Positions 2,340 through 26,600 are shown, counted from the first letter of the stretch. The stretch: DNA of 32,219 bases from an uncultured Pseudomonadota bacterium (GCA_964637745.1 CAZWYB010000004.1:1-32219), one strand, 5' to 3'. Made by a program: numbers and translations. Notes: generated by a model from the sequence alone, not told the origin.

Positions 2340-3415
2340 GGGGAACGGGGGCCTCCCTTGAGAATCCTCTGAAGAGATTCCAGAAACGCGCGGTTTTCGT
2401 CGGGGGTCCCGATGGTGACGCGCAAGGCGTCGGGCAGGCGCTTGGCGGTGACGTTCCGGATCAGGATCTCGTTTTTCGCAAGGGCTTCGAAGATCTCCTT
2501 CGATCGCGGCGATTGAAAGAGCACGTAGTTGGCATGAGAGGAATGGACCTTGAGCCCCGGCAAGGCCTTCAACCCCTGATAGACGAATTCGCGCTCGCCC
2601 AACATCTGATTCACCAATCGCCCGACGTATGCGTCTTCCTCCAGCACCACCTCCCCCACGATCTGCGACAAAAGGCTGACATGAAACGGGAGGACGACCT
2701 TCATCACCTCCGAGGCGACTTCGGGCGAGGACAACATGTAACCTAAACGAACGCCTCCCAGTGAAAAGGCCTTGGAGAGGGTTCGGATGAGGACCAGGTG
2801 AGTAAATTTTTTCAAATGACCGGCCAGGGTAAAACCGGAAAACGGATAGTAGGCCTCGTCGACCACCACCAGGGCCCCGATCTTGTCGGCAGTTTTCAGG
2901 ACGGCCAGGAGATCATCTTCGCAGATGAGGTTGCCGGTCGGAGCGTTCGGATTGGCGAGGAAGACGACGTTCGGCTTCGTCTTTCGCAGACTTTTTAGAA
3001 AGGCGTCTCGCGGAAACGAGAAGTCGTCCGAACGGAGCGGGATTTGAACCACGCGGTTTCCCAAGAGGCTTCCTTCGATTTCATAAAGGGAGAAGCTGGG
3101 CGTGAGGGTCAGGATCTTGGCCTTGACGGAGGTTGCGACAACAATCGCCTGAATCAGGATGTTGGAGCCGGCGGATACAATGACGCCCTGAGGGTCCCAA
3201 CACTCCCTTTCGGCAATCTTTTTCCTGAGGGGTTCGCAAAACGGGGTCGGATAGCGGTTCCAGTCGGCGGCCTTCATCCGCTCCAGGGCCTTTTTCTTGA
3301 GGGGGTCCGGGAGGTCATAGGGGGATTCGTTCTGGTTCAACTTGATCGTCCCATACTGATGCTCCAGCCGGTATCCTTTGAGCTTTTTGACTTCTTTGCG
3401 TATGGGGAGAACCAT
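2336..3415 (-). CDS. hisC: Histidinol-phosphate aminotransferase
   Basis: KLNQNESPYDLP near the N-terminus, ANPNAPTG, the PLP-lysine context LSKAFSLGGVRLGY and RVTIGTPDEN, at about 359 aa. GAGG lies 6 nt upstream of ATG3415. Confidence 0.9.
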   Translation of the reverse strand: MVLPIRKEVKKLKGYRLEHQYGTIKLNQNESPYDLPDPLKKKALERMKAADWNRYPTPFCEPLRKKIAERECWDPQGVIVSAGSNILIQAIVVATSVKAKILTLTPSFSLYEIEGSLLGNRVVQIPLRSDDFSFPRDAFLKSLRKTKPNVVFLANPNAPTGNLICEDDLLAVLKTADKIGALVVVDEAYYPFSGFTLAGHLKKFTHLVLIRTLSKAFSLGGVRLGYMLSSPEVASEVMKVVLPFHVSLLSQIVGEVVLEEDAYVGRLVNQMLGEREFVYQGLKALPGLKVHSSHANYVLFQSPRSKEIFEALAKNEILIRNVTAKRLPDALRVTIGTPDENRAFLESLQRILKGGPRSP

Positions 3416-4409: not shown

Positions 4410-5501
4410 ATGAATCAGAGATCAGATGAGGGGTTTGGGGGGAGAGCGGTATCTTCCCCCAAAATCAAAGTCGCTGTCGTAGGGGCCACGGGTTACACCG
4501 GAATGGAGCTTCTGAGACTCCTCCTTCTCCATCCGAATGTCCAAGTGGTCCTAGCGACATCGGAAAAATTCGCCGGGAAGAGGTTGAACGAAACCTTTCC
4601 CTTTTTAAAGGGAAAGACCGATCTCGTTTTGGAAACGCTCGCCGACGAGCGGGTTCAAAAATGCGCCCTCGCCTTTTCCTGTCTTCCCCACAAAAGCGCC
4701 ATGAATCACGTGGCGAGCTGGGTCGAGAAAGGCACGAAGGTCGTGGATCTCTCCGCCGACTTCCGTTTTCGGTCGGCGTCCACCTACGAGCAATGGTACG
4801 CGGACACAAAACACACGCATCCCGAACTTTTGCAAGAAGCCGTGTACGGCCTTCCGGAACTTCATCGCGAGGAGATCAAAAAGACCTTTCTCGTGGGAAA
4901 CCCCGGCTGCTACCCGACGGGGACCATCCTGGCCTTAGCCCCTCTCTTGAAGGAACGGCTGATCGGTTCCGATGGGATCGTCGTCGACGCCAAGTCGGGC
5001 GTGACCGGCGCCGGGCGGAGTGCGATTTTGGAATCTCTCTTCTCCGAAGTCAACGAATCCGTTCACGCTTATAAGATCGGAAAGCACCGTCACACGCCAG
5101 AGATCGAACAAGAGCTTTCCGCCGTAGCGGGACACCCCGTAGTGATCTCGTTCACGCCCCATCTCATCCCGATGGACCGAGGCATCCTTTCGACCGTCTA
5201 CGCCCGTTCCCTCAAGAAAACCGACACGGCGACGGTTCTGAAGACGCTTACGAACTTTTACCAGAAAGAACCTTTCGTCAGGATCCTGCCGGAGGGAGTT
5301 CTGCCCAAAACGAAAGACGTCCGGGGCACCAACGTCTGCGAAATAGGCGCCGTCTATGACGGCCGCACCGAGCGGATCGTCGCGGTCGCGGCGATCGATA
5401 ATTTGATGAAGGGCGCGGCCTCTCAAGCCGTCCAGAACATGAATCTCATGTCCGGCCTGCCCGAAACGACGGGCCTGGAAGCGCTCCCCCTCGTTCCGTA
5501 A
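4410..5501 (+). CDS. argC: N-acetyl-gamma-glutamyl-phosphate reductase
   Basis: KVAVVGATGYTGMELLRLL Rossmann N-terminus and catalytic GNPGCYPTG motif. The first ~17 aa (MNQRSDEGFGGRAVSSP) are an unusual extension encoded by a repeat element. No alternative in-frame ATG/GTG/TTG lies between 4410 and the conserved KIKVAVVG. Confidence 0.9.
   Translation: MNQRSDEGFGGRAVSSPKIKVAVVGATGYTGMELLRLLLLHPNVQVVLATSEKFAGKRLNETFPFLKGKTDLVLETLADERVQKCALAFSCLPHKSAMNHVASWVEKGTKVVDLSADFRFRSASTYEQWYADTKHTHPELLQEAVYGLPELHREEIKKTFLVGNPGCYPTGTILALAPLLKERLIGSDGIVVDAKSGVTGAGRSAILESLFSEVNESVHAYKIGKHRHTPEIEQELSAVAGHPVVISFTPHLIPMDRGILSTVYARSLKKTDTATVLKTLTNFYQKEPFVRILPEGVLPKTKDVRGTNVCEIGAVYDGRTERIVAVAAIDNLMKGAASQAVQNMNLMSGLPETTGLEALPLVP
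4423..4460 (+). repeat. 38-nt GC-rich repeat element, copy A (in-frame at argC 5' end)
   Basis: CAGATGAGGGGTTTGGGGGGAGAGCGGTATCTTCCCCC is 34/38 identical to the reverse complement of 15275..15312 inside polA. G6...C5-6 arms can form a hairpin. Confidence 0.85.
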
Positions 5502-16441: not shown

Positions 16442-16771
16442 TCAAAGCCCCAAAAGATTGCGCAGAACGGCCCTCACCTTCCTTCGTTCTGGAGAGCCCA
16501 GTCTTCCCATCCTTTTCAAGATCAATTCTTTACTCAGCGTCGCCATCTTTGAAATTCTGATGGTGGACGGCAGGAGCAATCCTGCGTCCCTCCAGCGCTC
16601 CAAAGAAACATCATAACCGTCCCGCGCTCCTTCACTGGTAATGCGGGCCACCAACACGTCCTCATCTCCAATATCCGCAATGACCAAGGCGGGACGTTTC
16701 TTCCGGCCCGAAAGATCTGAAAAAGGATAGGCATTGAGAAGCAGAATCTCCCCAAACTCAAAGCTTGTCAT
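16442..16771 (-). CDS. PemK/MazF-family type II toxin
   Basis: FGEILLLNAYPFSDLSGRKKRPALVIAD...LLPSTIRISKMATLSKELI matches the MazF/PemK fold pattern. ATG16771 overlaps the upstream antitoxin gene by 14 nt. Confidence 0.8.
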   Translation of the reverse strand: MTSFEFGEILLLNAYPFSDLSGRKKRPALVIADIGDEDVLVARITSEGARDGYDVSLERWRDAGLLLPSTIRISKMATLSKELILKRMGRLGSPERRKVRAVLRNLLGL

Positions 16772-16994
16772 ACACTCCGTCTTTCTCGGAATACCCTTCG
16801 AAGAACTCACGCGCCGCGAGACGGCTCCATCTCTCGTCTTCCGAAAGGCACTTTCCCTCCTCGAGAAGGTGCTCCCTTAAGACTTCTGCAACAGCCTGGG
16901 AGAAAGACCACTTGCGCGAGCGGGCAAGTTTCTCAAGCACCCTTTTCAGAGCGCTTTCATCTTCCTTGGAAATATATACGGACCAATAGGCCAT
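16758..16994 (-). CDS. Type II antitoxin (small, RHH/CopG-like guess) of the MazF-type toxin
   Basis: 78-aa ORF directly upstream of and overlapping the toxin gene, with an acidic C-terminus ending GVYDKL. Strong RBS AAAGGAGAAGTT precedes the ATG. Confidence 0.7.
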   Translation of the reverse strand: MAYWSVYISKEDESALKRVLEKLARSRKWSFSQAVAEVLREHLLEEGKCLSEDERWSRLAAREFFEGYSEKDGVYDKL

Positions 16995-21132: not shown

Positions 21133-21167
21133 TTAAAAAAAGGAAAGGGCGGGGTTTCCCCCGCCCT
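21133..21167 (-). terminator. Rho-independent terminator after the delta-60 repeat gene
   Basis: The minus strand reads GGGCGGGG-gaaa-CCCCGCCC (perfect 8-bp GC stem, 21147-21166) followed by TTTCCTTTTTTTAA. Two further hairpins lie between the stop codon and it (21177-21203 and 21208-21224). Confidence 0.85.
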
Positions 21168-21237
21168 CCCTGAGCCCCTCGGAAACGATCGCTCGTCCCG
21201 AGGTATGTACATCATCGTGATGTAGAATTTCTTTGAT

Positions 21238-22860
21238 TCATCTCACCAAGCTGCAACCACCCGTAGGTGCTTGGGCGGCGACCGATCCACCGGCCGACGG
21301 CGCAAGCGCCTCGACTTTTCCGTGAATCGCGGGGGCTTCACCTAATGGACTTTCTGGAACCGACGGAGTTGCCGGCCCGGGAGTCACGGTAACGGGCGTA
21401 CTCAACAAGGCGCCGCCTCCCGCAGGAGGAGTTGGGGTTGCGGGAGGCGGCACCGGAACGGGAACGGGCGCAGGGGCTGTCGCAGAACCTGCGGGGGGAT
21501 GAAGTTGAGTCACGAAAGTCTGCGGGGCGAGCGGCATCGCGACAACGGTAAGAGATTCAGCCGTCTTCGTCTGGTAACGGGCCAGAGCAAATTCAGAAGT
21601 AGAGCTGCGAAGACTGGTGCCGGCCACGATGACACTGTCGTCGTTGGGATCGCGAACAAGACCGACGGCGAAATCGACTCCTCCGACATCGGTGGTCGTA
21701 TAACCACGAGTCCCGAAACTCGGATCGAGTCGTCCATTGTCGGAGCCGGAGGTCAGGACCTTGGCGAGGGCGAAGTCGCTCCAGCCAGTGTGGCGATCGA
21801 GGTTGTAACCCGCCACGATCAATGAACCGTCGGGCATGACTTCAAGTCCTGAGATCACGGTCTCGTTTGTAATTTGGAGGGTCAGCCGCGCCATGCCGAG
21901 CCCGCCGAACGACGCATCCGGGCTTCCGTCGGCATTCCGGCTGGCGATCGCGAACTCGCTGTTGCTGTTCCGATCCACCACTAGGCCCGCGATAATCACG
22001 CGGCCGTCCGGAAGAATCCCCACGGCCTTGCCGTATGTCTTATCGACAAGATCGATGGTGAGGAGCCCGTCTCCATCAAAGGATCGATCGAGGCGGCCAT
22101 CCGCGGAATAGACGGCAAGAGCGAACTTTTGGTGGGGATCGATCCCCGAAGTCCCGCCGACGACGATCCGTTGTTCCTCCTCGCTGATGGCAAGCGCTGC
22201 CGCCTCCTCTTGATCACCGAAGTCGGTATGGATCCAACCATTCCGGTTGAACGACGAATCCAAATTGAGATCCGCGTCGTAGCGGGCCACGAGAAAATCG
22301 GAATCACTGCCGTTGTCTCGTTTCCCGACAACCAGGATCCTGCCATCTTTTAGAACCTTGACGGCGTTCAGGCGTTCATCGGCTCCCAGGTCATTCACGA
22401 CGTATCTTTCCAAACTTCCATCGAGGCGATAGCGGGCCAAAAGGAGATCTCCCTTGCAGGAGGATGCGACATTGCAGCTTAACTTTGTCCCGGCGACGAC
22501 GATCGCGTCACCGAAGGGTCCACCCTTTTGAAAAGCCACTCCGCCGACTTCGATGCGATCGTCTGCGTCACCGCCTAAGGAAGCGATCGTCATGACGGCA
22601 AAGCCCATACCCTGATTAAAGGAGGGATCTGGCTGGCCGTTTCCTTTATAACGCGCCACGATCAAATCCGATCCGTCGGTACCGACCACGACGATCTTGC
22701 CATCCGGCTGTATGGCAATTCCTGATGCTTTAACCGTACTAAAGTTTGAAAGCGCCACGCCGTTGGTCCCAAAGCTGGGAAACAGATCTCCCGCTGCGGC
22801 ATATGCGAGTCTTGCAACGAGGGTCGTCAAAAGAACGAGTGAGATAATTTTTGTGCTCAT
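21238..22860 (-). CDS. Secreted delta-60-repeat (beta-propeller) protein with Pro-rich C-terminal tail
   Basis: Signal peptide MSTKIISLVLLTTLVARLAYA. About 7 repeats of the (L)DxSFGxxG motif occur roughly every 55-60 aa (PSFGTNG, DPSFNQG, DSSFNRNG, DRSFDGDG, DASFGGLG, DPSFGTRG). RBS AAGGAGAA precedes ATG22860. The protein ends ...APTGGCSLVR. Confidence 0.85.
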   Translation of the reverse strand: MSTKIISLVLLTTLVARLAYAAAGDLFPSFGTNGVALSNFSTVKASGIAIQPDGKIVVVGTDGSDLIVARYKGNGQPDPSFNQGMGFAVMTIASLGGDADDRIEVGGVAFQKGGPFGDAIVVAGTKLSCNVASSCKGDLLLARYRLDGSLERYVVNDLGADERLNAVKVLKDGRILVVGKRDNGSDSDFLVARYDADLNLDSSFNRNGWIHTDFGDQEEAAALAISEEEQRIVVGGTSGIDPHQKFALAVYSADGRLDRSFDGDGLLTIDLVDKTYGKAVGILPDGRVIIAGLVVDRNSNSEFAIASRNADGSPDASFGGLGMARLTLQITNETVISGLEVMPDGSLIVAGYNLDRHTGWSDFALAKVLTSGSDNGRLDPSFGTRGYTTTDVGGVDFAVGLVRDPNDDSVIVAGTSLRSSTSEFALARYQTKTAESLTVVAMPLAPQTFVTQLHPPAGSATAPAPVPVPVPPPATPTPPAGGGALLSTPVTVTPGPATPSVPESPLGEAPAIHGKVEALAPSAGGSVAAQAPTGGCSLVR

Positions 22861-22883
22861 AACTTTCTCCTTATAATTAGTTG

Positions 22884-23333
22884 TCACTCGAAGGACATTG
22901 AAGCGGTTGCCGGGTGATCGATCTCGTATCGGCGAAGATCGAGCGCGCCCATTTTCTCCTCAAAATCGTTTTCCTGCTTGTCGACGCGGGCCTGATAATC
23001 CAGCTCCGCGATTTTCAGCGAGTTCTGAAGTTGTTCGCGACCTTGCTGAAGCCCCGCAGCGATCTGCGCCTGACCCAAGGTGAACATCGCCTGTGCTTGC
23101 ATCATCTGCTGGCCCACCTGCGCCATGCCGACCCGGAACATATTGTCGGACTCGTGCATCATCGCCGATGAATTGAGAGACAACAATTCGCCGAATGGTG
23201 AGGAGGCGTGGTGGCCACCAGAAATAGTGTCGCCGACAGCACCTAATGTCCCGCCCACCAAAGAACCAAATCCGCCTAAGGCATCCCCAACCAATGATCC
23301 TGCTGCGGTCCCGATCTTATCTAAGAGTCCCAT
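22884..23333 (-). CDS. Small Cys-free glycine-zipper / Gln-Met-rich protein (149 aa)
   Basis: MGLLDKIGTAAGSLVGDALGGFGSLVGGTLGAVG has GxxxG registers G8-G12-G16-G20 and G23-G27-G31. No signal peptide. GGAG lies 7 nt upstream of ATG23333, whereas the track start 23339 is only 1 nt from it. The gene ends 23 nt before the delta-60 gene. Confidence 0.75.
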   Translation of the reverse strand: MGLLDKIGTAAGSLVGDALGGFGSLVGGTLGAVGDTISGGHHASSPFGELLSLNSSAMMHESDNMFRVGMAQVGQQMMQAQAMFTLGQAQIAAGLQQGREQLQNSLKIAELDYQARVDKQENDFEEKMGALDLRRYEIDHPATASMSFE

Positions 23334-23362
23334 AAACATTCTCCTTTCGATGGGAATTCATA

Positions 23363-23381
23363 AGAGCAAGGTGGGTGCCAA
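23363..23381 (-). promoter_or_regulatory. Sigma-54 (-24/-12) promoter P1 for the small-protein/delta-60 operon
   Basis: The minus strand reads TTGGCACCCACCTTGCTCT, which is TGGCAC-N5-TTGC with exact GG-N10-GC spacing. The predicted TSS is near 23354, about 21 nt before the ATG. Confidence 0.8.
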
Positions 23382-23585
23382 ACAAAGATTCGCGCTGCCG
23401 AGGTCGACAAGCGGCTTGGATCATTCAGAAAATTGGATATTGATAATTAAAATTAACATTAAAATATAATTCACAATTGTTCACATTTCAGGATGTAATT
23501 AATCATAAACAATTATAATTATTTCTGTTAATTAACATTAACAAGCAATTTCTTAATTAATAACAATTAGATACGGCTCACATTA
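23382..23585. promoter_or_regulatory. AT-rich divergent control region (candidate enhancer/UAS and bending sites)
   Basis: My hand count of 23431-23580 gives 29/150 G+C. Perfect palindromes TGTTAATTAACA (23526-37) and ACAATTGT (23473-80). Direct repeat ATTAACATTAA at 23452-62 and 23531-41. Several TTAATTAA copies. Confidence 0.6.
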
Positions 23586-23602
23586 TTGGCACGCCTCTTG
23601 CT
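23586..23602 (+). promoter_or_regulatory. Sigma-54 (-24/-12) promoter P2 for the 1048-aa/485-aa operon
   Basis: TTGGCACGCCTCTTGCT matches the TGGCACG-N4-TTGCW consensus exactly. The predicted TSS is near 23613, with AAGGAG at 23615-20 and GTG at 23630. Confidence 0.8.
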
Positions 23603-23629
23603 CTCTCATCGGTCAAGGAGATTCAAGAC

Positions 23630-26600
23630 GTGTCCATAAGAGCTCTTACAGCACACAACGCGAAGCGGTCCCACTCGCCTCGACACGACTTTAAACCAAC
23701 TACGAGTACGACCCCTCATCCCCCTGTGGAGACTGGGACCCGGTCTTACTTCAACATGATCACAGGAGGAGCCACATCCATCCTCCCCTGCCTCTTCGGT
23801 GGTCTGGAGAAGATCGGGTCCCTCGTCTCCTCTTTTCGGAAGAGAATGGAAGCGGAGGCGGAGACCTACGCCGCCAAGGGCGATTATGAAGGCGCGCTTC
23901 AAATCGGCCTCAAACTGCGCGGGGGATTGAAAAATGACATCACCTTAGACCTCAAGCTCGCGGAGTGGGCGAAGAAGGCCCACAACTTGGTCGTTGCCTA
24001 CGAAATCCTAAAACCCCATCGTGCGCCGCTGCCGCTCAACATCCGTGATGAGGCGCGACAGAAGACCTTCATCGAGCTGACGCGAGATCCCAAGACGTGG
24101 GTCGCGGTCGCTCATGAGCAAATGAATAAGGGCGATTATGCGGCGGCCCTCGAACACCTCCGGTTGGCCCGCGAATTCGCGTTCACCGAACCGAGGTTCC
24201 CGCGTCCGGGCGAATGGCAGGTCTTTCGAACCGTGCCCAGAGAGACCGTCGATGCGGCCTTGGTCCAGCGGATTGAAGACGAGATATCGGCAGTCACCCA
24301 CGCCGTTGAGGATCTCCCAGACCGCGTGCGAAGGATGTATCCGGAAATCTATCGTTCCGAGATCGCGCCTCCACTCGATTCCCTCTCGAAGTTGGAAACC
24401 AGGCATATCGACCTCTCCACCCTCACCCAGGAAGCCAAGACGAAGATCCTGGCCGGCATTCTTTATCACAATCAGCGACTCATCGGTGAGGGCTACAACC
24501 TTACGAGCCAGATCGAACGCTACACCCAGCTTGAGCCCTACAAGGCCAATATGATCGAGGTCGTCTCCGCTCAGCGCCCTCGAAACTCCCGATTCGCCTT
24601 CGAACTCGACCCATCCGCCGTCCAGGGCGACGTGGATCCCATGGAGGTCCCTGCGGAGGCGATTCGAAACGATGCGGTCATGAAGGCCTATGAGGGCTTA
24701 TCTCGGGAAAACCCGATCACCGCGCATCTCATCTCAGAGATTTATGGAGATATGAAGGAAACCCTTGTCCGAGAAAGCGCGCGAGCCTTTGATCGGGGAC
24801 GCTACAACCCCTCCCTTTCTTCTTACGACCCGATCCGGGATCAAACGATGTTCTCGGACTACCGTGAGGAACCGGTCCACAACGTGCAAGAGTTGACGGC
24901 CCTCAATGACCGCCTCGCGAGGCTCTACGTCGGCGCCCCCGTCGAAGAGTTTTTAAAAAAAATCAGCAGTCAAAAAGAAGCTCCAAAAGTTGATGAAACC
25001 GGCGGCGCCTTGGCCGCCCTCCCCCGCTATTCCCGGATCATTTTTGAAACACCCGAACCGACCGACGACTGCCGTCATACCACTTGGGCGGATGTGAGTG
25101 ACACCAAACACTTACTGATCAGTCGCCTGGAGGAACACGAACGTTACTTCCTCCAGAAGCGGGCCTCCCTCGACGTCGACGCGGAGAAATCCCTCCGTAA
25201 CAGAGACCTGAAAGGCATGAATCGAGTCACCGAGATCCTCGATCATCTCCGTCAGGAATACCGGCCGGCGGCCGCTGAGATTGAAAAGATCAAATCCATC
25301 CCTCTCAACAACATCCCCGAGGCCCTGGCTCTCCTGAAAAGGGTCGGCCCATCGGTCTTTGAGGCGGAGGAGCGATATCTCCGCTCCAACCTCCGAGACA
25401 AAATCGAGACGCTCCCGGGCTCTCCCACTTGGACGGACGGAAACGGACGAGAGCAAAAGTTAAAAGACATCTTGGGAGACATCAGCCCCTTCAGCGCCAA
25501 GATCTTCCATGTCGATGTGGGAGGACACAGAGCCTTCGAGCAAAGGATCGCCCGATATCAGCGCCTGAACGACATCGTCAACGAAAAGGGGACGGATGCG
25601 GCCGTCAGCGAGACGATTTCCCACCTCGAAAGCCAGGAAACCAAGGCGCATCGCTCGGATTGGATCAAACGGCATGTCGGTGTCATGGTCGGACCGGATC
25701 CCATTCCAGACATGATCGAGGGGCTTAAAATCGCGCGCGGAATGATCCGTTCCGATGATTCACAAGTCCGGGCGCGCGGGTACGAGGCCTTGAGGCAGCT
25801 GAACAACGCCTCCCAAAATGAGGACATCAAGGGTAAGGTCGCGTCCCTTCGTTGGTATGAACGATATGTCGAGAATTTCGCGGTCCCCGCCGTCACGATC
25901 ACCGCCAGCATGGCCCTCGGAGGCATCACCACGAAATTCATGGGCCCGCTTGCGACCCGTTTCCTGGGTCAAACGGCCGCCGGCCACATCGCCTTCTGGT
26001 CCGGCACCGCCGTATTCAATATATCCAACCGCCTGCTGACCGCGAAGTATGAAGGCGCCGGTGTCGTCAACGAACTCAAAAATATGGCCGCACATCCCAT
26101 CCAGACCGGCGTGGGGGTTTTGTTCGACGGTCTGATGATGCACTATCAAAACTTCGTCACGGGACGTGTCGGCCGCCTGGCCGAAAACAGTCTCGGTCTT
26201 AAAGGCTGGTCTCGGAAGCTCCCTTTTCCGGTCCGCTTTCCCGTTACGGTCGGCGCCTTGCACGTTTGGAACAACGGCGTCCTGTCCGTCTACCGCAACC
26301 TCGAAAACAACGGTTCATTCGCGAACGTCATCAGCGACCTCACGCATCCAAATCTTCTTCATGACGCCGCCTTCCTCTTTGCCCTCGAAACGTTCGGAAA
26401 CGGCATCTTCCGGGCCGCGAAGAATTTCGATGCCGCTGAGGAATTAGGCATCAAGATCGCGCGCCTGGATAAGACCCGCCTTAAACTGGAGGCGGAAATC
26501 GACGGACTTCAATCCCTCCGAAGGAGATCGCCGGACCGCTCGACGGCCCTTTCGCTGACGAACCAATTGGAGGGACTCTTAGAAAAGTATCGCGACCACC

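Follow-up and report, generated by a model that had tools for sequence, protein, structure and literature searches.

A divergent pair of probable sigma-54 promoters around an AT-rich spacer with putative enhancer dyads in an uncultured Pseudomonadota bacterium

Introduction

Bacterial enhancer-binding proteins (bEBPs) bind as dimers to tandem palindromes upstream of sigma-54 promoters, and integration host factor (IHF) binds between enhancer and promoter (PMC6296734). The gene for sigma-54, rpoN, is nearly universal in diderm bacteria that bear lipopolysaccharide, and sigma-54 has been proposed to control the cell exterior (PMC3162934). Two described systems are of particular use here. In Escherichia coli and Salmonella, the divergent sigma-54 promoters of zraP and zraSR are served by one bEBP, ZraR (PMC4987338), and in Chlamydia the sigma-54/CtcC regulon activates membrane-remodelling proteins together with type III secretion effectors (PMC7482065). 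In this work we describe a locus in a stretch of 32,219 nucleotides from an uncultured Pseudomonadota bacterium (GCA_964637745.1 CAZWYB010000004.1:1-32219), hereafter the window, where two predicted sigma-54 promoters, P1 on the plus strand and P2 on the minus strand, point away from each other across an AT-rich spacer. The locus resembles zraP/zraSR in having two opposed sigma-54-type promoters over one intergenic region and envelope-type products (PMC4987338). Sequence analysis established the motifs, their statistics and where they lie, and showed that they are conserved in remote homolog clusters. On this basis we consider it likely that P1 and P2 are working sigma-54 promoters that share one enhancer region within the spacer.

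Results

Two exact -24/-12 elements face outward from one intergenic region

The two elements and their leaders are as follows.

23586 to 23604, plus strand: P1, sigma-54 -24/-12 element TTGGCACGCCTCTTGCTCT, with GG at 23588-89 and GC at 23600-01
23363 to 23381, minus strand: P2, sigma-54 -24/-12 element TTGGCACCCACCTTGCTCT, an exact match to the consensus
23615 to 23632, plus strand: P1 leader, Shine-Dalgarno AAGGAGA at 23615-21 and GTG start at 23630; the call of a gene of 1048 amino acids (aa) agrees
23331 to 23346, minus strand: P2 leader, Shine-Dalgarno AAGGAGA at 23346-40 and ATG start at 23333; the 149-aa gene call agrees

Read directly from the sequence, the plus strand at 23586-23602 is TTGGCACGCCTCTTGCT. 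The initial annotation had quoted this string and its minus-strand counterpart as exact instances of TGGCAC-N5-TTGC, and both were found at the positions given for them and fit the pattern in full. In each, GG and GC are spaced exactly 10 nt apart, and P1 also fits TGGCACG-N4-TTGCT exactly. These are the only two exact matches to TGGCAC-N5-TTGC in the window (23587-23601, plus; 23366-23380, minus), against a mean of 0.03 expected by chance, and none of 100 dinucleotide-preserving shuffles contained two or more, which agrees with the earlier judgement that a chance origin is very unlikely. A repeat finder also recovered the imperfect inverted repeat that had been described between the two arms, which is 19 nt long, complementary at 16/19 positions (84%) and separated by 204 nt.

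Scoring the window with a position weight matrix (PWM) for sigma-54, which we wrote ourselves in rough form after the published consensus, placed P1 first (17.7 bits) and P2 second (15.9 bits), so the two annotated elements are also the two best matches. Since the maximum in shuffled sequence averages 13.9 bits, the PWM taken alone backs just P1 and P2. Every sequence-based test supports P1 and P2 as sigma-54 promoters, and we regard that assignment as probable.

Taking the start site as the position 12 nt downstream of the -12 C, transcription is predicted to begin near 23613 for P1 and near 23354 for P2, a separation of 259 bp. The -12 C of P1 (23601) stands 29 nt before GTG 23630 and that of P2 (23366) 33 nt before ATG 23333, giving predicted leaders of 17 nt and 21 nt. 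These leader lengths and the AAGGAGA before both starts hold as originally annotated, but CATCG, which had been placed within both leaders, is not a leader element that the two share in register: the P1 copy (23607-23611) lies upstream of the predicted start site, and the motif is in register with the Shine-Dalgarno sequence rather than with the promoter. On the minus strand there are two ATG codons to choose from, one 7 nt past GGAG (23333) and one just 1 nt past it (23339). The gene most likely starts at ATG 23333, because ATG 23339 is too near the Shine-Dalgarno sequence and the public 149-aa gene call concurs.

The spacer carries a series of TGTT-N10-AACA dyads

Between the two promoters, we found the following features.

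23423 to 23569: AT-rich core (17% GC) of the upstream region common to both promoters; proposed enhancer and looping region
23441 to 23458: dyad S1, TGATAATTAAAATTAACA (TGWTAA-N6-TTAACA), proposed bEBP site
23494 to 23511: weaker middle dyad, TGTAATTAATCATAAACA, centre 23502.5
23526 to 23543: dyad S2, TGTTAATTAACATTAACA (exact TGTT-N10-AACA), proposed bEBP site

The core is the lowest-GC 147-nt stretch of the window, which has about 57% GC overall, and the next lowest such stretch has 39%. Relative to the predicted start sites of P1 and P2, respectively, the centres lie at -163.5 and -95.5 for S1 (23449.5), at -110.5 and -148.5 for the middle dyad, and at -78.5 and -180.5 for S2 (23534.5). The dyads thus precede these start sites by 79-181 bp, in the usual range for enhancer-binding proteins. 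Centre to centre, the middle dyad is separated from S1 by 53 bp and from S2 by 32 bp, about five and three helical turns, and because of these spacings all three are expected on the same face of the helix. The 18-mers of S1 and S2 are 89% identical, dyad-symmetric and 85 bp apart, with no further copy in the window.

Allowing one mismatch at most, TGTT-N10-AACA occurs four times in the spacer, one of the four being a one-mismatch copy at 23520-23537 that overlaps S2. The expected number is 0.18, and 0 of 20,000 composition-matched simulations reached four. The longer form TGTTAA-N6-TTAACA, with the same tolerance, occurs twice (0.003 expected). From the motif, its number and its position, we think it rather more probable than the alternatives that these dyads are the enhancer, that is, putative bEBP sites.

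Searches for other kinds of element in this region were negative. Open reading frames (ORFs) in the spacer are limited to those of 35 aa or fewer plus the tail of an antisense ORF, none of them supported; an Rfam search and PADLOC gave no match, and PHROGs gave nothing meaningful. A replication origin was rejected, as the cumulative GC skew declines evenly through the locus and does not turn there. Pfam scans showed no dnaA or other origin gene; DnaA boxes were not searched for.

A third element stands before a lipoprotein-like gene

The divergent pair is not the only instance of its kind in the window. A third copy of an extended motif lies about 5 kb away on the minus strand, with a dyad and a gene of its own.

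28791 to 28810, minus strand: P3, third sigma-54-type element TTGGCCCTCCCTTTGCTCTT, predicted start site near 28783
28891 to 28908, minus strand: dyad upstream of P3, TGTTTCCGATCGTTATCA, centre at -116.5
28285 to 28764, minus strand: 159-aa gene downstream of P3, with a signal peptide and lipoprotein-like features

P1, P2 and P3 share TTGGCNC-N5-TTGCTCT, the P3 copy being at 28794-28810 (minus). The window has three copies where about 0.001 are expected, and 300 Markov simulations gave none, for a motif that was defined post hoc, after inspection of the data. The core of P3 (28795-28809, minus) has one mismatch (TGGCCC) and keeps GG and GC, and its -12 C stands 31 nt before ATG 28764. Since P3 matches the P1/P2 consensus at 13/14 positions and is rightly placed, a chance origin is very unlikely. 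All three elements are intergenic, in a window whose intergenic share is 3.8%, and each is oriented toward an adjacent gene with a Shine-Dalgarno sequence between. The P3 dyad starts 2 nt past the stop codon of the upstream ORF, and with TGTTTC as its left half it has the half-site seen in the distal dyads of the homolog clusters described below. Most likely, P1, P2 and P3 belong to a single regulon whose products are envelope or secreted proteins. That upstream ORF, at 28910-32219 (minus) and listed as 1093 aa, is open to the window edge and lacks its N-terminus; its product has a STAND/MalT-like TPR region and a membrane helix, and its C-terminus is extracellular and Cys-rich.

Remote homolog clusters repeat the promoter and dyad layout

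Searches of a word-indexed database with the 1048-aa and 149-aa proteins returned self-matches only, and for this reason orthologous intergenic regions could not be compared directly. Public assemblies held no exact match to three window proteins, and a plasmid DNA search gave no match. An exhaustive HMMER search recovered 13 remote relatives of the 1048-aa protein (P0003-P0015), with 24-32% identity, lengths of 1100-3100 aa and phmmer E-values from 6e-28 to 1e-3. The best alignments span residues ~70-1035, and tblastn confirmed matches between the 1048-aa protein and the homolog clusters. Genomic context was covered for 8/13 relatives, which make up seven distinct clusters, P0006 and P0007 sharing one contig of a metagenome-assembled genome (MAG). 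We refer to the contig stretches by L numbers. The 1048-aa family is the only one shared by the window and these clusters, the 149-, 549-, 485- and 159-aa proteins having no relatives there. In four independent clusters, L201, L202, L205 and L206/L208 (MAG GCA_035454885.1), the homologs sit in one-directional arrays of large unannotated genes.

PWM matches of at least 13 bits in these four clusters lie directly upstream of a gene in 13/13 cases, at most 46 nt before its start, where the count takes P0005 as re-started at ATG 4973; counting 12/13 instead, the binomial P is 2e-22. When 17 promoters were aligned, GG, TTGC and a T-rich stretch after the -12 element proved invariant or nearly so. 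Across the same 17 promoters, TGTT-N10-AACA occurs 23 times in the zones from -220 to -40, against 1.2 expected. In the homolog clusters, where most of these promoters have the dyad, its centres are near-fixed, at about -134 (TGTTTC-N6-GAAACA) and about -87 (TGTTRC-N6-TTAACA). The proximal dyad of L206, TGTTCATTAACATAAACA, is centred at -88.5 of its sigma-54 promoter and is identical to S2 at 16/18 positions.

The family members share an N-terminal peptide, M[TA]xNxxLKxGVF, whose conservation supports their start codons. The family starts lie 14-17 nt after the -12 C, which implies leaders of only about 2-5 nt. These giant genes and their upstream elements are found at L201 5973-6003; L202 1447-1480 and 5971-6003; L205 258-289 and 4942-4975; and L206 7972-8003 and 12603-12634. 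The public call of P0005 appears 44 codons too long upstream (L205 4841-4972); both the sigma-54 site (4942-4957) and the N-terminus conserved in the family suggest ATG 4973 as its true start. The window protein begins MSIRALTAHNAK..., not with the family peptide, and its gene instead has a leader of 17 nt that contains a Shine-Dalgarno sequence.

Neighbours in the homolog clusters include Ser/Thr kinases with PEGA domains, HSP20 and Cys-rich lipoproteins, as well as an sctU gene (TIGR01404, 359.5 bits against a cutoff of 358) and a borderline AvrPphF-like domain (25.2 bits against 25). The SctU-type gene, a non-flagellar type III export switch, occurs alone beside the giant-protein arrays at L206 5302-6459 and L201 3380-4528. 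In these two independent lineages, its flanking genes are a Pkinase-PEGA gene and an unannotated, conserved one of 433-440 aa, and no other type III secretion gene was seen within the L206 and L201 stretches in view. The cluster of MAG GCA_035454885.1 ends with a convergent gene for a 1429-aa bEBP (L208 18329-21259, minus), whose domains are Pkinase, TPR, GAF, Sigma54_activat, AAA-lid and HTH_8, with a GAFTHA loop variant. This protein stands out as a candidate activator. A fusion of kinase, TPR, GAF, AAA+ and HTH_8 is an unusual architecture for a bEBP.

Two further contigs offered observations on the same motifs. L211, with 45% GC, has a strong sigma-54 match on the minus strand at 27392-27407 (TGGCACTCAACTTGCT, 16.6 bits), 16 nt before an 81-aa gene. 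The L213 contig has 62% GC, and an AT-rich stretch in it, some 190 bp long (3040-3230), contains GTTATTATAAA, a motif also found upstream of sigma-54 promoters in L201 and L202, with a similar GTTATTGAATTTAAA in L208. In L213 this stretch is followed by a weak -24/-12 site, TGGCATGCCGTTTGTA, and by a 150-aa gene that is coupled with a family member, an arrangement that resembles the AT-rich spacer of the window. The 149-aa protein of the window has no similarity to this 150-aa gene preceding the family member in L213.

Occurrence of the 18-mer outside these clusters

Scanning metagenomes for the 18-mer TGWTAATTAAMATTAACA yielded at least 120 matches, mostly chance occurrences in AT-rich contigs (median GC 0.35). 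The exact 18-mer as a general sigma-54 enhancer was ruled out by high-GC copies that have no sigma-54 site. Near-identical palindromic 18-mers (TGTTAATTAA[AC]ATTAACA) are found between genes in unrelated high-GC contigs, again with no sigma-54 site nearby, and these may be the operator of some common regulator.

L098, 2231 to 2248: palindromic 18-mer in a high-GC contig
L172, 11535 to 11552: palindromic 18-mer in a high-GC contig
L182, 5222 to 5239: palindromic 18-mer in a high-GC contig
L134, 2271 to 2288: palindromic 18-mer in a high-GC contig
L085, 790 to 807: palindromic 18-mer in a high-GC contig

Genes of the two divergent units

The window is chromosomal DNA with rplM/rpsI, argC, hem genes, an RNR gene and polA, and these housekeeping genes are followed by a block of lineage-specific genes. 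The two divergent units are made up as follows.

22884 to 23333, minus strand: minus unit, gene 1, 149-aa orphan, acidic, no Cys, Gly-zipper-like N-terminus
21238 to 22887, minus strand: minus unit, gene 2, 549 aa, secreted delta-60-repeat (DUF5122) beta-propeller
21143 to 21170, minus strand: strong intrinsic terminator closing the minus unit, 12-bp stem with 9 G-C pairs, T-run
23630 to 26776, plus strand: plus unit, gene 1, 1048 aa, all-helical, TPR-like repeats, rare giant-protein family
26791 to 28248, plus strand: plus unit, gene 2, 485-aa orphan with one predicted membrane helix

The two divergent units of unknown function named in the initial annotation are present, with 149 and 549 aa on the minus strand and 1048 and 485 aa on the plus strand. 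The 549-aa gene overlaps the 149-aa gene by 4 bp, and the gap between the 1048-aa and 485-aa genes is 14 nt. A structure model of the 149-aa protein predicts two long helices and is uninformative for function. AlphaFold models the 1048-aa protein as all-helical (predicted local distance difference test score 67, predicted template modelling score 0.39); the model had no Foldseek match at E <= 0.001, and a profile search of the PDB with this protein found generic TPR repeats only. Domain searches found no regulator in either unit. The propeller protein ends ...APTGGCSLVR (21238-21270, minus) after a long Pro/Thr/Ala-rich linker, an end reminiscent of a truncated C-terminal sorting signal. Where the housekeeping genes give way to the lineage-specific block, a MazF/PemK-type toxin gene (16442-16810, minus) lies downstream of an overlapping 78-aa ORF (16758-16994); the two look like a type II toxin-antitoxin pair (16442-16994, minus).

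Taken together, the products of the window units read as envelope, secreted or lipoprotein-like proteins, which fits the proposed role of sigma-54 at the cell exterior (PMC3162934).

Discussion

How P1 and P2 might work

In the scheme we propose, binding of sigma-54 and of a bEBP, looping, the start sites and co-regulation are all predicted from the features described above. RNA polymerase with sigma-54 would sit on each -24/-12 element as a closed complex unable to open by itself. A dedicated bEBP, encoded outside the single 33-kb source contig, would bind S1, the weaker middle site and S2, and the flexible AT-rich DNA would loop, possibly with the assistance of IHF or HU, such that the bEBP could reach either complex and open it through ATP hydrolysis. 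Transcription would then proceed from about 23613 (plus) and about 23354 (minus), through leaders of 17-21 nt into strong Shine-Dalgarno sequences. By the same scheme, P3 with its own dyad would drive the lipoprotein-like gene.

Evidence against the proposal and rival explanations

Several results weigh against this proposal. The window holds neither rpoN nor a bEBP gene, and no bEBP signature was found in its six reading frames. No close genome was found in GTDB through HemB, where the best identity was 67% with matches in several phyla. The PWM is a self-made approximation, by which P3 alone scores 13.5 bits, at the level of chance, and the dyad pattern was recognised post hoc, its definition being drawn partly from the window itself. 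Among the homologs, the more distant ones have weak sigma-54 sites (L210 and L213) or none (the giant family gene of L211), and in L208 the promoters of the 518-, 724- and 377-aa genes have no dyad at up to one mismatch. Five matches to TGWTAATTAAMATTAACA in high-GC contigs have no sigma-54 site near. In the spacer, there is no A-tract phasing (10.5-bp AA/TT). The IHF consensus WATCAANNNNTTR is not enriched, with 14 matches window-wide against 11.7 by chance; three one-mismatch matches to it lie at 23543-23573, between S2 and P1. A consensus scan also found about seven sigma-70-like hexamer pairs in 23404-23609.

The last of these raises the question of whether the true promoters are of the sigma-70 type, placed within the AT-rich spacer, with the -24/-12 matches having no function. 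One example is TTAACA-18-TATGAT on the minus strand, which matches the sigma-70 consensus at 10/12 positions, but such matches are expected anyway in DNA of 17% GC. A sigma-70 origin would also leave unexplained why two -24/-12 elements are exact and a third nearly so, where 0.03 and about 0.001 are expected, and why such elements recur before remote homologs in other organisms. We consider it improbable. It is possible that a sigma-70 promoter works alongside the sigma-54 promoters, and the sigma-70-like pairs leave possible room for additional promoters in the spacer. A quite different explanation is that the 242-bp unit is a miniature inverted-repeat transposable element or other repeat whose ends merely resemble sigma-54 promoters. 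The arms are indeed largely complementary around an AT-rich interior, but no direct target-site duplication flanks them, their similarity stops at the promoter core, and the P3 copy is solitary with no inverted partner. Moreover, the homolog clusters have single, correctly oriented copies before genes, there is no match in plasmid DNA, and the flanking proteins are found on one contig only. We rejected the transposable-element explanation on the missing target-site duplication, the unpaired P3 and the single copies in homologs, and would assign it only a very slight chance.

A stronger challenge accepts the sigma-54 promoters as real and denies that the TGTT-N10-AACA dyads are their enhancer. 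The dyads could instead bind some other factor, for instance a repressor, a nucleoid protein or a protein that silences AT-rich DNA, or be merely bendable DNA, with the bEBP site elsewhere or with an activator that acts without binding DNA. The near-identical intergenic 18-mers in high-GC contigs and the three L208 promoters lacking a dyad speak for this, as does the spacing of the homolog-cluster dyads, which at 47-48 bp (about 4.5 helical turns) puts them on opposite faces of the helix, an unusual arrangement for co-operating bEBP dimers. Against it, the dyad is about 20-fold enriched in the zones from -220 to -40, an enrichment that holds against composition-matched controls, and it occupies fixed positions relative to the -24/-12 element in several lineages. 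Both the 6-N6-6 geometry of the dyad and its location are those usually seen in bEBP sites (PMC6296734). We judge this rival unlikely, though appreciably less so than the other two, and continue to favour P1 and P2 as sigma-54 promoters served by the dyads between them.

A wider reading and its significance

More speculatively, the window could be a compact divergent offshoot of an undescribed sigma-54/bEBP-controlled array system in uncultured bacteria, a reading we hold only tentatively. In such a system, nearly every array gene would have its own -24/-12 promoter and TGTT-N10-AACA dyads, and the products would be giant all-helical TPR-like proteins, many of them from near-leaderless mRNAs, together with Cys-rich lipoproteins. 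The arrays would adjoin a lone sctU, Ser/Thr kinase genes and a kinase-GAF-bEBP fusion, and they might encode a signal-triggered, secreted or envelope-remodelling set tied to a type III-like export. The type III secretion link comes from the sctU gene of the homolog clusters and the borderline AvrPphF-like match, and from nothing in the window.

Divergent sigma-54 promoters with a shared enhancer are already known, and the mechanism we propose is a standard switch that holds no new lesson for transcription. What is new is the regulon itself, including undescribed clusters of giant helical proteins, the conserved layout of dyad plus promoter that ties the window to these clusters of uncultured bacteria, and the near-leaderless transcripts predicted for the clusters. 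In the literature, we found no description of giant-protein clusters of this kind and nothing relevant on the dyad or on leaderless sigma-54 transcripts. The near-leaderless sigma-54 transcripts predicted in the homolog clusters would be unusual if confirmed. The analysis marks five orphan or near-orphan genes as one probable, tightly switched regulon, and through the promoter and enhancer layout links them to rare giant-protein clusters, one of which has an identifiable candidate activator. This yields testable predictions about the identity of the activator, its binding site on DNA and the set of responding genes. In addition, a dyad followed by a -24/-12 element can serve as a search pattern for the rest of the regulon in metagenome-assembled genomes.

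Comparison with known systems

In the NtrC/glnAp2-type layout, palindromes are often tandem and lie about 80-180 bp upstream of GG-N10-GC with AT-rich DNA between (PMC6296734), much as in the window. The TGT...ACA dyad and the TGTTAC-like half-site resemble the NifA site TGT-N10-ACA and the TGTTAC subsites of CbrB (PMC6296734), but the window dyad is TGTT-N10-AACA (6-N6-6), unlike either the NifA or the CbrB arrangement. The locus may also depart from the enhancer-IHF-promoter layout, in that its IHF matches are no higher than chance. With the Chlamydia CtcC regulon, it would share group control of membrane and secreted proteins by sigma-54 (PMC7482065), although there is no sequence relationship between the two.

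In zraP/zraSR the activator sites lie between the promoters, and the window has three in-phase dyads in that place as putative sites. The systems differ in that one of the two zra operons encodes the bEBP itself whereas neither window unit encodes a regulator, and in that the window spacer is extremely AT-rich, with three or four dyads, and its genes are unrelated. Also close are the homolog arrays of L201, L202, L205 and L206/L208, which likewise have their own -24/-12 promoters with the TTGCT/TTGCA form of the -12 element, and TGTT-N10-AACA dyads upstream with AT-rich DNA between dyad and promoter. Those arrays are long and one-directional, adjoin sctU, Ser/Thr kinase genes and a bEBP gene, and their family genes are nearly leaderless, the -12 C standing 14-17 nt before the ATG. 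The window, in contrast, is a compact divergent pair with leaders of 17-21 nt, strong Shine-Dalgarno sequences and TGTTAA rather than TGTTTC half-sites.

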